From: Candidatus Aenigmatarchaeota archaeon
GTDB lineage: Archaea > Aenigmatarchaeota > Aenigmatarchaeia > QMZP01 > QMZT01
Assembly (NCBI GenBank): GCA_963726265.1
Contig: CAVSBQ010000002.1
Location: forward strand, 1,024,001 to 1,088,000
Reading direction: 5' to 3'
Length of the DNA stretch: 64,000 nucleotides
Numbering within the stretch: the stretch's first letter is position 1; every line of letters begins with the position of its first letter. Made by a program: the position numbers. Of the stretch, positions 36,001 to 39,000 are shown piece after piece.

Positions 36001-39000
36001 ATAAACCCCAACCTGCCGGACATGCTGCTCGCCTACCTGTTCGCGATAAAAAACGCCGAGCCGCGCGATGCGAAGGCGCTGGCGGCATACTTCTTCGAGT
36101 GGAACGCCAAAAGGTTCTGATGCTGTTGCAAGTTTTTAAACCGAGAAGTCCATGTATTTTAAAGTGATAGCAAATGCCAACCTTTGAAAAATATTGCGAC
36201 AAGTGCGGAGAGCCGTGCACGGCGCTCAAGAACGTGAACGGCAGGATGCTCTGCCCCAAGTGCAGGGGCGTCCATCTCCAGGAGGACGAGGAAGTCACGA
36301 GGAAACAGAAGCGCAGGAACATGTGGCTGGACAAGTAAGCGGGGGTACCCAAGCGGTCAAAGGGGCTAGAATACCTAATCCAAGGGTATGGCCAAGTTTA
36401 GGTATGGCTAAGTTCAGGCGTTGGCTGAAAAGCCATGGAAATGCCTAGTGCTTTAGTAGCTTCCAGGGTTCGAATCCCTGCTCCCGCATTCTCTTTCTTT
36501 TACGGGCCTGAAAATGATTTATTAGCGAGTTCCCATAATCTTAATTATGGCAGTTTTCGGCAAGACGCCTGACGAAAAGCAGGAAAGGATACTGGCCGAC
36601 GTCATAAACAGGATGAACGAGAACGTGCAGAGGCTTCGCGTAATCGAGCAGAAGATGCAGGCGACGGACACGCGCATGAATTCCATCGAGCAGAACTTCG
36701 TCTCCTACAACAAGAACATCCAGAGGTCGGCGGCCGAGAGGGACGCGAAAATCGGCCAGCTCGAGGAGAGGGTGGGGAGGATAGAGACGACCTACAAGGA
36801 GATACTCAACCAGCTCAAGCTAGTCGCGACCAAAACGAACGTCGACGAGATTAGGCAGCTCATCTCGATATACGATCCCATGAAGTCGAGTTTCGTGACG
36901 AAGGAGGAGATGGAAAGCTTCATCGATGAAAAGCTTTCGAAGCCCTGAGGGAAAGCGGGGAAATTTAATATTTTAAGAGGATGAAACCAAATATAATATA
37001 AAAGGGGTGTCTTATGTTCAATCCTTTCGGCGGCAAGAAGAAAAAAGGCGACGCTATGGAATCGATGGATTCGTCTTACGGAGGTCCGGCGGGTCCGCCA
37101 TCTTCGAGGCCGCCCGAAAGAAGGATAGTCCCGAGCGACGAGGTAAGGGCATTCGCGTCGCGCGGCGTCCCGGAGCCCGACATAATCAGGGCGTTAAGAC
37201 GCGAAGGTTATTCCACGACGGAGATAGACCAGGCCATGAAGGAAGCGCTTAAGAACAGGGTTTCGGGCGATTTCTACAGGCCTTCCAACGAATACGGCGA
37301 GCGACCCTTAGGAGGCCCGCCCGAGGCGCCGCCCGAGAGGGACGAGCTGCCCAGGAACCTCGGCTACCCAGGCGCCGACATGGTAGATGAAGAGCTGCCG
37401 CCACCGCCCGAGCCGGCCTTGAGGGAACCCGAATTCCCGGACATGCCCGAGGGCGAATACTTCCAGCCGCAACCGAGGAGAGCGCCGGCAAGAGGACCGC
37501 AGAGGCAAGGCATAGACAAGCGCGAAATCGAAGAACTCGCTGAAGTCATAGTCGACGAGAAGCTGCGCGACATAAGAGAGCGCTTCAAGGTGGTCGATTC
37601 CCAGTTCCAGCAGATAAGCAGGAAGATGGATTCGGTCTCCGACGAGATGAACAGGATGCGCTCCGAGAAGAGCGGCGAGGTCAAGGGCATAGAGAGCAAG
37701 ATAGACGGCTACTCCAGGAACATGGATGCGATAAACGGCAGGATGGAGTCGATGGAGAAGGCGCTGAAAGACTCGCTTTCGCCCATGCTAGAATCCATGC
37801 GCTCGCTGGCCGACCTGGTCAAGAGCATGAAGGAAAAGGGCAAATAAAAATTGCCTTACTATTTTTTTATCTTCAAAGTTATCTTGTTGGTCCTGCCCAG
37901 GCTTTGCACTTCGACGATGCCGCGCTCCTTGAGGCCCGTTATGATCCTCGAGACCTTTGCCTTCGAGAAGTCGCTTTCGCGCACGATGACCTTCTGGTTC
38001 GCCGAGCCCTCGTGCTTGAGCAGTATTTCTATGACGACCTTTTCGTCCCCCTTCATCAGCGGCATGAGCACCTTTATCGAGTCCTGCTTGCGCGTCGTCC
38101 TCACGTAGAAAACGCCCAGGGAGGCGATCAGTATCACGGCTATCACGACGGTTATGCCGATGTCCCATATGCTGCCCATGTTGGATGGCGGCAGGCGGTA
38201 CGTCACGGCGTAATACATGTCCTCCCCGTTCTCCACGCTCTCCTTGTCCCAGTAGACCATTATGTGCTTGCCGTCGCTCAGGGTCTTGCCGTTCCTGGGC
38301 GTGAAGGACTCGTTAGGCGCGTCTGTCACGAGCGTCGCAGTCGGAGGCAGGTAGACGATGTTGAAGAACCTGTTCGTGCCGGTTTCGATGGGGACGAAGC
38401 GGTTGAATTCGTAAACCTCTTCGGCCTTCTGCGTGATTTCGTCGCTCAGGAACGATATCTCGATCTTTGCGCCGTCGTAGTTTTTGTAGTTTATGAAATC
38501 GCACGAGACGGATGACATCTCTCCTGCCCTGGTTTCACAGTCGGCGGGGGCGTATTTCGATTCGACCGTGACGTTGGAAATCCTTGCCTTGAATTTGTAT
38601 TCCATGCTTTCGACGCTGGAGTTGAACGTCAGCGTAACGACGTTCAGAATGGTCGTATCTTCCTGAATCCAACTCTCTATGCCGTAGTAATCGAGATTCT
38701 GTGCCTTTGCAGGCCATATGAAACAATTCAGAGCCAGAAGGAACAATAACGCAGCAGCTATCCTGGGCTTTTTCATATAAAATATATTGGTTGCATAGAG
38801 TTTAAAAAAGTAATTTGGAAGCGGCATTTATGATTTAAATAACCCTTTCCTCAGCTCTTCAAGTTTTTTAACTCTTACGCTCCCACCGGATAAACTTGAA
38901 ATATTATCAATCGTATGCTCAATGTTTTTCAAAAGGTGCATATATTCCGGTACTTTGTCAACTGACAGTTCAGGGCCATCAAATTCCGTTAGACCATCGG

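Follow-up and report, generated by a model that had tools for sequence, protein, structure and literature searches.

To our knowledge, every tRNA gene is assumed to encode one tRNA, and no report of cis alternative tRNA splicing was found in the literature that we searched. In the excerpted text of PMC6582322, alternative splicing of pre-tRNA is called very rare, and the sole case named there is a trans-spliced one from Caldivirga, namely the tri-split tRNA-Gly of Caldivirga maquilingensis (Fujishima et al. 2009; excerpts of PMC4033280 and PMC6582322). The excerpt of PMC4033280 also describes the split tRNA-Glu of Nanoarchaeum equitans, in which one 3' half serves two 5' halves (Randau et al. 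2005). Finally, archaeal tRNA genes with several introns, including introns with non-canonical bulge-helix-bulge (BHB) motifs, and the broad-specificity ε2 endonuclease of ARMAN-2 are treated in the excerpts of PMC3239211, PMC3488258 and PMC12397907.

The gene described here lies on the forward strand at positions 36339-36488 of a 64,000-nucleotide stretch (the window) of the genome (G000) of a member of Candidatus Aenigmatarchaeota, a tiny archaeon from sediment. It resembles the tri-split tRNA-Gly in that BHB splicing would join a common 3' part to alternative anticodon pieces, yielding synonymous isoacceptors; however, the Caldivirga pieces are separate genes that act in trans and bear complementary leaders, whereas here there is one 150-nt precursor and a choice of 3' site in cis. 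Indeed, all of the pieces are contiguous within 36339-36488, and likewise in 39 relatives, instead of being dispersed over separate loci with complementary leaders as in split and tri-split genes. As with the N. equitans tRNA-Glu, isoacceptors that differ in the anticodon would share sequence and be made by the splicing endonuclease, but in that organism whole 5' halves are duplicated at separate loci, whereas here it is a 7-nt piece that differs, in cis. What is shared with the multi-intron genes and ARMAN-2 is that introns lie at 30/31 and 37/38, that BHB motifs are relaxed and that G000 encodes an ε2-like EndA (398 aa, three units; C2:198780-199976) matching the ARMAN-2 enzyme (4fz2) over its full length with an E value of 2e-108; unlike those genes, each of which gives one product, the locus has two mutually exclusive candidate exons between its introns. 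A parallel from further afield is provided by the docking and selector sites of Dscam, where competing RNA pairings choose between mutually exclusive exons in a eukaryotic pre-mRNA: in both, one common element pairs with one of several tandemly duplicated partners and decides which exon is kept, although the machinery there is the spliceosome and the RNA is of another kind, such that this is an analogy only.

The 5' exon (36339..36369) comprises the 5' strand of the acceptor, the D arm, G26 and C27-G30, and ends in GGGGCUAG (CUAG, position 30). It is common to both predicted products, and its GGCU (positions 25-28) forms the 4-bp helix at the centre of the BHB for the first intron. There follows a proximal intron segment of 26 nt (36370..36395), consisting of A, a hairpin AUACCU/GGGUAU, GGCC and AA, which is the entire first intron when copy A is chosen, and then micro-exon A itself (36396..36402), GUUUAGG, which corresponds to positions 31-37 with the anticodon UAG. 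A 9-nt spacer, UAUGGCUAA (36403..36411), lies between this and micro-exon B (36412..36418), GUUCAGG, again corresponding to positions 31-37, with the anticodon CAG. The spacer provides GGUAU, GGCU and AA, which make up the 3' half of the splice site for copy B; if copy A is chosen instead, the AUGGCU of the spacer supplies the inner helix of the 37/38 intron. The distal intron segment (24 nt; 36419..36442) is made up of a hairpin, UGGCU-GAAA-AGCCA, followed by GGAA, which pairs with positions 32-35, and AU, and the 3' exon (36443..36488), which has a T-arm match, contains G38, CCUAG (39-43), the variable arm, the T arm, the acceptor 3' strand CUCCCGC and A73. All of these features are on the + strand, and the sequence and positions agree with the preliminary description, which had reported a 150-nt tRNA-Leu gene with two 7-mers between its outer exons. 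Both 7-mers are contained in a 16-nt tandem repeat, GGTATGGCCAAGTTTA / GGTATGGCTAAGTTCA; the layout could have originated through tandem duplication of the exon end and the anticodon loop, and, because the exon-end word GGCU is self-complementary, such a duplicate would create a BHB at once. Among the 24 intron-bearing tRNA candidates of G000, this is the only one with a tandem anticodon repeat. The Glu(UUC) gene at window positions 35092-35272 was considered as a second dual gene and rejected: its intron has a UCUCGAA word, but there is no BHB to that word.

Judged on its sequence, this one gene probably gives rise to two isoacceptors, tRNA-Leu(UAG) and tRNA-Leu(CAG), that would differ at position 34 only. 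When the corresponding slices of the window are joined in silico, exon 1, copy A and exon 3 yield an 84-nt tRNA-Leu(tag), and exon 1, copy B and exon 3 an 84-nt tRNA-Leu(cag); each folds as a class II cloverleaf, is called tRNA-Leu, and has the variable arm and A73. The earlier proposal that the junctions lie at 30/31 and 37/38 and that either 7-mer can supply positions 31-37 is upheld. No tRNA is called if both 7-mers are retained, and a proper anticodon loop is absent if neither is; at the level of motifs, the two would behave as mutually exclusive exons, with either copy included, never both or neither. The anticodon arm of the CAG product (CUAGG UUCAGGG CCUAG) is identical to that of intronless tRNA-Leu(CAG) genes of the sister family, and the arm of the UAG product (CUAGG UUUAGGG CCUAG) is found in another archaeal MAG, in a tRNA-Leu(UAG) gene that has no intron.

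Standard tRNA finders do not give the correct call: at 36339-36488, ARAGORN without introns reported no tRNA and an Rfam gathering search no entry, and ARAGORN with introns miscalls the locus as 'tRNA-Thr(agt)' with a 74-nt intron. This would suit a decaying or mis-assembled tRNA gene, in which the repeat is a recent accident and no functional tRNA results. Such an explanation is scarcely credible, however: the exons make a complete cloverleaf with A73, the locus is the sole possible source of UAG and CAG Leu tRNAs, and the same (type-1) layout occurs in 21 of the 23 genomes of the family, with a second layout in a 22nd, and as 39 distinct sequences, metagenome contigs included, from independent assemblies. 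The preliminary description had found this gene type, with both 7-mers conserved, in six genomes; the conservation holds and the count was an underestimate. A search for RNA among the 22 runs listed for this sequence found none. DNA contigs of four further runs span the locus, and their strain variants spare both copies, the sole variant in the spacer being T>C at 36409. Three apparent 'joints' (skips of 85, 74 and 67 nt) were rejected as spliced DNA; the contigs concerned come from paralogous Leu genes, as is shown by loose ends such as the loop of the AAG gene.

For the splice sites, a BHB was taken as a 4-bp helix between two 3-nt bulges, with the cut after the second bulge base. An unbiased scan of all pairs in the 150-nt G000 precursor found only four that meet the strict motif, and the top two of these connect G30 with copy A and with copy B, respectively. 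In both, the 5' cut falls after G30; the 3' cut precedes copy A in one and copy B in the other. The most apt description of the choice is that the first intron has a single 5' splice site and two alternative 3' splice sites. The copy-A BHB (31,57) is strict, with a 4/4 central helix and an inner helix of 6 bp. Across the 39 distinct type-1 genes, the central pairs are present in 38, 39, 39 and 39, with the same counts for copies A and B, and inner-helix pairs 1-5 in 39, 39, 35, 39 and 39 for copy A and in 39 each for copy B, for which a sixth pair is present in 38; these paired counts, and those for the type-2 layout discussed below, are not independent proof, because duplication in tandem brings the 3' half of the splice site along with it. 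In five genes, the copy-A site helix has a compensatory C-G to U-A change, whereas the copy-B partner remains G. A 4/4 central helix that would skip both copies, or retain both, was found in 0/20 genes in each case. The earlier contention that a BHB can be drawn for either copy is thus upheld by the all-pairs scan and by the relatives. A single 30/31 intron of the same geometry occurs in four Leu genes with just one anticodon (three AAG, one UAG), and among these a central pair has changed in a compensatory manner from U.G to A-U, which indicates that the first-intron motif type is genuine. The 'simple form' genes of relatives, which the preliminary description used as a related guide, turn out to be AAG paralogues, not orthologues. 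Two caveats apply to the first intron: its outer helix consists of two G.U pairs only, and its central helix is in competition with the last D-stem pair and the anticodon stem.

We propose that splicing would proceed as follows. At the end of the exon, GGCU-AG|A, and at the start of the intron, AUACC, the precursor would pair with one of the two tandem GGUAU-GGCY-AA|G elements, forming one of two alternative BHBs with the common 5' cut after G30 and the 3' cut before GUUUAGG or GUUCAGG. The ε2-type splicing endonuclease would then cut and RtcB, which is encoded in G000 (C2:662647-663915; 518 bits), would ligate, and the anticodon would thereby be fixed. Only after this first ligation would the anticodon stem be able to form, and it would provide the outer helix for a BHB at the canonical 37/38 site. 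In this BHB, the UGAR/GGAA element at the distal intron end would pair with positions 32-35 of whichever copy was chosen, allowing the remainder to be removed. A mixed choice, of site A in the first intron and site B in the second step, would give a dead-end RNA, which ordered splicing would avoid. We infer from the sequences that both paths are used, that the steps occur in this order and that the ratio of the products is determined by RNA folding. In energy, the two first-step conformers are nearly equal, with a median difference of -0.3 kcal/mol (range -3.9 to +4.6), and B is favoured in 8/20 genes.

The second step was followed along targeted two-step paths, the permissive BHB classes judged by ARAGORN having been set aside on account of their many spurious 'products'. 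Accepted paths to both products exist in 18/20 family genes; L006 has an accepted path to UAG only, and L007 to CAG only. The preliminary description had canonical geometry at all four junctions: the first-intron sites are indeed strict, but the copy-B second step of G000 is relaxed, having a central helix of 3/4 and an inner helix of 2 bp, compared with 6 bp for copy A. Here an alternative must be weighed, in which only tRNA-Leu(UAG) is made, by removal of introns of 26 and 40 nt; copy B would then be a relic or a structural part of the second intron, and the UAG tRNA would read both CUA and CUG. Its better second-step motif in G000 speaks for this reading, as does the presence of conformer A in the G000 MFE fold. 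The partner of position 34 in the distal intron, moreover, is usually G, which pairs with U or C, but is A in 12/39 genes, where it fits U34 and leaves a C.A mismatch for C34 in the copy-B central helix. Inner-helix pairs 3-5 of the copy-B second step are present in only 26, 27 and 17 of 39 genes. The copy-A second step has gaps of its own, its fourth central pair being missing in 7/39 and inner pairs 2, 4 and 5 in 11-12/39. Strict motifs are found in only 7/14 of the canonical-position introns of G000, and those of the Ile(GAU) and Ser(GGA) introns are as weak as the copy-B second step, which is inside the range shown by genuine introns of G000. Against a UAG-only gene stand also the first-step BHB of copy B, which as tabulated above is equal to or better than that of copy A, and the identity of the copy-B product arm with that of intronless CAG genes. 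We regard it as unlikely.

Both 7-mers are invariant in 39/39 distinct type-1 genes, as determined with a regular expression that left positions 32-35 unconstrained, and both are present in 23/23 tRNA contexts matched by an anticodon-agnostic metagenome pattern. By comparison, the distal intron is hypervariable, with lengths of 16-67 nt among relatives and an average identity of 0.39 between pairs. The sequences indicate that both copies are under strong constraint in many genomes; for copy B, this is hard to reconcile with a gene making the UAG product alone, where it would lie in a hairpin loop of that hypervariable intron. The converse alternative is that only tRNA-Leu(CAG) is made, through introns of 42 and 24 nt, with copy A persisting as one strand of an inner helix, AUACCUAA/UUAGGUAU, and CUA being read by another tRNA. 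This was the preliminary description's own caveat, and the helix to copy A does reach 7-11 bp in 19/20 family genes and appears in the G000 centroid fold, which has the conformer-B helix. By descent, too, this is a CAG-type gene: its loop, UUCAGGG, matches the sister-family CAG genes. Copy A, however, is invariant even where its partner is missing (L007), and the partner strand is variable; the compensatory change noted above is peculiar to the copy-A site helix; the A opposite position 34 in 12/39 genes mismatches C34; and an intronless tRNA-Leu(UAG) with an identical arm exists. Production of the CAG isoacceptor alone thus seems to us improbable. Nevertheless, in the copy-B conformer the extended inner helix takes in copy A and, in the type-3 layout described below, GCUC of copy B pairs inside an intron hairpin; therefore, part of the conservation could be structural.

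The Leu tRNA set bears on the same question. In G000, whose assembly is 88% complete, there are only four Leu genes: UAA, CAA, AAG and the dual gene. A separate gene for UAG or CAG was absent from G004, G008, G010, G011, G012, G023, G029, G031, G042 and G058, and from the closed chromosome G061, in inventories based on the GCGGGGGT acceptor or on contiguous anticodon loops, which split or disrupted genes would escape. CP070801.1 is one closed genome that has the dual gene. In the sister family, separate genes are seen: G027 and G049 have both UAG and CAG, and G039 has CAG only. CUG is the commonest Leu codon, accounting for 32% of the total, which weighs against a gene devoted to UAG; on the other side, CNN tRNAs are absent from many archaea according to the excerpt of PMC6000648. 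CUA makes up 3.3% of Leu codons (2.9 per 1000 codons), a rarity that speaks for production of CAG alone, but no UAG gene was found, so there is no other reader of CUA. A search for an A34 deaminase found no clear TadA, and the sole CDA-fold protein, which is ComEB/dCMP-deaminase-like, was rejected as a candidate for acting on the A34 Leu tRNA. The UAG tRNA alone could read CUG by wobble, and the A34 Leu tRNA, if deaminated, could read CUA; strictly speaking, then, the codon table demands neither product.

Two further layouts, each in seven species, and three hybrids occur in other families, with UAG always first and CAG second. A strict motif is present in 6/7 type-2 genes. In type 3, exon 1 continues directly into copy A and GCUCAGA is located within the canonical intron, such that a single strict canonical splice suffices for UAG, as would be expected if that were the sole product. 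However, a strict BHB that excises copy A is found in 6/6 type-3 genes, far above shuffles of the spacer (such a BHB arises in 20-118 of 20000, and in 0-7 of 20000 at the observed helix length), and would have no role in a UAG-only gene. Equally, the canonical motif for copy A joined to exon 1 is 4/4 in 6/6 type-3 and 5/7 type-2 genes, at odds with a CAG-only gene. Returning to the dual-anticodon reading, we think it rather likely, on balance, that one entire order within the Aenigmatarchaeota has replaced separate UAG and CAG genes by single dual-anticodon genes, in at least three layouts with UAG always first, in which competing pairings would pick the BHB 3' site and so set the identity and ratio of the isoacceptors.

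If correct, this reading would provide the first case of a tRNA that is alternatively spliced in cis, and an example of mutually exclusive exons from beyond the eukaryotes; it would imply that BHB splicing, although carried out by proteins alone, could generate a diversity of products in the manner of the spliceosome, and would give tRNA introns a concrete function. It would, moreover, offer reduced genomes (~1 Mb) a route to retain the full set of decoders, and would explain the under-counting of isoacceptors by tRNA finders in DPANN archaea.

As to the surroundings of the gene, a scan for bacterial-type promoters and terminators around it detected nothing. Directly 3' of A73, a T-rich run, TTCTCTTTCTTTT (36489..36501, + strand; noted by eye), is a possible transcription stop. 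On the 5' side, the gene adjoins the stop codon of a 54-aa zinc-ribbon-like ORF (36174..36338, + strand), with which it is presumably co-transcribed. TATA-like boxes are seen at ~36133-36165, 5' of this ORF, and none immediately before the tRNA-Leu gene.

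The dual tRNA-Leu gene, at window positions 36339-36488 (+ strand), opens with exon 1 (36339-36369, +), which reads GCGGGGG UA CCC AAGCGGUCAAA GGG G CUAG. This is followed, all on the same strand, by a proximal first-intron segment of 26 nt, the micro-exon GUUUAGG (copy A), the spacer UAUGGCUAA, the micro-exon GUUCAGG (copy B), a distal intron segment of 24 nt, and exon 3, which comprises G CCUAG, the variable arm, the T arm CAGGG-UUCGAAU-CCCUG, CUCCCGC and A73. A 16-nt tandem repeat houses both 7-mers, and the gene is missed or mis-called by ARAGORN and Rfam. Candidate products were assembled by script from slices of the window and then subjected to tRNA calling: exon 1 and exon 3 joined through copy A gave tRNA-Leu(UAG), and joined through copy B gave tRNA-Leu(CAG), both of 84 nt; no tRNA was called when the two copies were retained together, and the anticodon loop is absent from the in-silico product lacking both. 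The sequence and these products thus bear out the preliminary description of two tandem anticodon 7-mers in one tRNA-Leu gene. That both tRNA-Leu(UAG) and tRNA-Leu(CAG) are made is the best-supported reading of the sequence comparisons, and a fairly probable one.

The genome itself (G000; 1.13 Mb in 4 contigs, 88% complete) has many long introns in its tRNA genes. Upstream of the dual gene lies a tRNA cluster (34246-35272) encoding Ser(CGA) (34246-34391; 60-nt intron), Val(CAC) (34401-34472), Val(GAC) (34509-34583) and Glu(UUC) (35092-35272), the last being 181 nt long; its D loop carries an insertion, and its canonical intron of 74 nt has a strict bulge-helix-bulge (BHB) motif. A zinc-ribbon-like ORF of 54 aa occupies 36174-36338, and the tRNA-Leu begins at the very next base after its stop codon; since TATA-like boxes are seen only upstream of the ORF (at about 36133-36165), the two may be co-transcribed.

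BHB motifs were scored against the canonical geometry, in which two 3-nt bulges, cut behind their second base, flank a central helix of 4 bp. When all pairs of sites in the 150-nt precursor were scanned, four strict matches emerged, the top two of which share a 5' cut after G30: at site A, the 3' cut falls before copy A, with a GGCU/GGCC central helix and an inner helix of 6 bp, and at site B, it falls before copy B, with a GGCU/GGCU central helix and an 8-bp inner helix, AUACCUAA/UUAGGUAU. The central helix of the first intron occupies G25-U28, and therefore the anticodon stem cannot form concurrently; as, moreover, the outer helix of the 37/38 intron has only 1 bp prior to the first ligation, we infer that splicing is ordered. 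The first step would select copy A or copy B, and the selected copy would then adjoin the anticodon stem, thereby defining the second BHB. Once the first step is complete, the motif for the second has a 3/4 central helix and a 6-bp outer helix with either copy, the inner helix being 6 bp for copy A and 2 bp for copy B. Motifs this relaxed must be cut in G000, since its control introns are as weak: only 7 of the 14 canonical-position introns scored have a strict BHB, and those of Ile(GAU) and Ser(GGA) both have a 3/4 central helix, with inner helices of 1 and 0 bp, respectively. The sole EndA (C2:198780-199976; 398 aa, three-unit) aligns end to end with the ARMAN-2 epsilon2 enzyme (4fz2; E 2e-108), a type for which a passage of PMC12397907 reports broad specificity, and RtcB is also encoded. 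The 30/31 geometry was checked against four single-anticodon Leu genes of relatives with one such intron each (three AAG genes and the UAG gene of G027), the introns of which must be spliced to give working tRNAs; all share a 4/4 central helix, an inner helix of 4-5 bp and a 3' bulge AAG cut before its G, and one central U.G pair is replaced by A-U among them.

Within the group, the architecture is both real and ancient. When the gene was searched by BLAST against G000 and 60 relatives, homologues were recovered in 20 genomes belonging to its family, f1 (G000 included), and GUUUAGG, 9 nt and GUUCAGG are found in all 20. The same arrangement is carried by G016, and G007 has the second layout, such that 22 of the 23 family genomes possess a dual gene, a wider distribution than the six genomes initially noted; none was seen in G018 (77% complete). 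In a metagenome scan that left positions 32-35 unconstrained in both copies, 34 loci matched, of which 23 have tRNA-Leu context, each with UUUA and then UUCA, and 11 are unrelated repeats or sequences. Long tandem arrays of 16-nt period, built on the same word GGTRTGGCCARG, occur on unrelated metagenome contigs (L152, L155, L156, L160, L175 and L178) with no tRNA context around them; one array is GGTATGGCCAAGAAGY repeated eight times.

Taking family and metagenome together, there are 39 distinct genes of the G000 layout (type 1), and both 7-mers are unchanged, in the order originally described, in every one. Among the 20 family genes, the distal intron varies from 16 to 67 nt with a mean pairwise identity of 0.39, and identity in the mid-part of the proximal intron is 0.54. 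Strain variants in DNA contigs from four runs affect the proximal loop, one spacer base and the distal intron; none was found inside either 7-mer. Both anticodon pieces are under strong constraint, and the gene has splice motifs for each.

Base pairs tallied across the 39 genes extend the earlier proposal that a BHB can be drawn for either micro-exon, for which G000 supplies strict first-intron matches in both cases. At site A, central pairs 1-4 form in 38, 39, 39 and 39 genes and inner pairs 1-5 in 39, 39, 35, 39 and 39; at site B, the counts are 38, 39, 39 and 39 (central) and 39, 39, 39, 39, 39 and 38 (inner 1-6). For the second step, they are 39, 39, 39 and 32 (central) and 39, 27, 38, 27, 28 and 25 (inner 1-6) with copy A, and 39, 39, 27 and 32 and 32, 37, 26, 27, 17 and 23 with copy B. 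The base opposite position 34 is G in 27 of the 39 genes, compatible with both U and C, and A in 12, compatible with U34 only. In five genes, U-A replaces C-G at inner pair 4 of site A, the site-B partner remaining G; this is a compensatory exchange confined to the copy-A helix. In 18 of the 20 family genes, a two-step search reached both products by accepted paths, the exceptions being L006 (UAG only) and L007 (CAG only), and a 4/4 central helix was found in 0/20 for the pairing that skips both copies and in 0/20 for that which keeps both. When ensemble free energies were calculated with the first-intron BHB to copy A or copy B enforced (conformers A and B), the difference had a median of -0.3 kcal/mol (range -3.9 to +4.6), with B preferred in 8 of 20; for G000, the MFE structure contains the conformer-A motif and the centroid the long conformer-B helix. 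Both conformers are thus predicted to be accessible, and the energies predict no product ratio.

Two further layouts preserve the order UAG then CAG. Type 2 (seven species) reads GGGGCUAGG CUUAGG, spacer, GGGGCUAGG UUCAGG, intron, A CCUAG; the BHB joining its two GGGGCUAG copies is strict in 6/7, and all four central pairs of the canonical motif form in 5/7 for copy A and 5/7 for copy B. In type 3 (seven species matched, six parsed), copy A, CUUAGG, is continuous with exon 1, and GCUCAGA lies within the canonical intron. Both anticodon words were fixed in the type 3 search pattern, and their conservation is therefore no evidence; the BHB formed through the free spacer is. A strict BHB from G30 to directly before GCUCAGA is present in 6/6, its 5-6 bp inner helix pairing copy A with the intron word CUAAG, and in 20-118 of 20000 shuffles of the spacer a strict motif arose at precisely this site; in 0-7 of the 20000, its helix was also as long as that observed. 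For copy A, the central helix of the canonical motif is 4/4 in 6/6; in the second step for copy B, it is 4/4 in 1/6 and at least 3/4 in 6/6. Hybrids in G023, G042 and G029 have a strict BHB from G30 to the second copy, and the UAG path of the G029 hybrid failed the accepted classes of the two-step search; in the hybrids, too, UAG comes before CAG. GGCU can pair with a second GGCU, the end pairs being G.U, so that duplicating the exon end plus loop in tandem yields a BHB between the copies. Such a duplication may be the origin of the gene, in which case type 2 would resemble that state and type 1 a trimmed descendant of it.

Four Leu genes are present in G000, for UAA (C2:264826-265006), CAA (C2:413778-413926) and AAG (C2:960937-961075), and the dual gene. 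A search of this 88% complete genome for NU[UC]AGR loops between complementary 5-bp stems, allowing no more than one intron and requiring a T arm close by, gave no further UAG or CAG candidate; acceptor-pattern searches likewise found no separate gene for either in G004, G008, G010, G011, G012, G023, G029, G031, G042 and G058. In the closed chromosome of G061 (CP070801.1; second layout), an intronless Leu(CAG) used as BLAST query matched the dual gene, the AAG gene and nothing else. Family f6 has separate UAG and CAG genes in G027 and G049 and a separate CAG gene in G039; its CAG arm, CUAGG UUCAGGG CCUAG, is identical to that of the copy-B product. The copy-A product has the same arm, CUAGG UUUAGGG CCUAG, as an intronless tRNA-Leu(UAG) from another archaeal MAG, a genome from which a CAG twin with an arm of this type is absent. 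Across 910 long ORFs of G000, CUG and CUA make up 32% and 3.3% of Leu codons. The only cytidine-deaminase-fold protein of G000 resembles ComEB/dCMP deaminase, not TadA; with no clear TadA found, I34 reading of CUA is unsupported, though it may occur.

Full-text searches covering literature outside subscription journals returned no case of cis alternative tRNA splicing, and a term search of an Asgard tRNA-intron preprint (10.64898/2026.10.13.758758) gave none. Passages of PMC4033280 describe a shared 3' half for Glu in Nanoarchaeum and, separately, swappable tri-split pieces.

The CUU/CUC decoder of the order is tRNA-Leu(AAG), with loop CUAAGGA, found at C2:960937-961075 in G000 and at L064, L071, L068, L024, L099, L078, L076, L092, L100 and L118; the loop is unbroken in several genomes. 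No GAG gene was seen, yet CUC accounts for 30% of Leu codons in G000, and A34 tRNAs are described, in a section of PMC6000648, as almost absent in Archaea. In the tRNA-Leu(CAA) gene (C2:413778-413926), the intron near 30/31 holds UUCAAGA, a near-copy of the real loop CUCAAGA with the same anticodon, together with the complement UCUUGAA. Finally, on several contigs of G056 (family f5), at least seven separate BLAST matches cover only the 5' half of the Leu gene; these halves may be split or multiplied.
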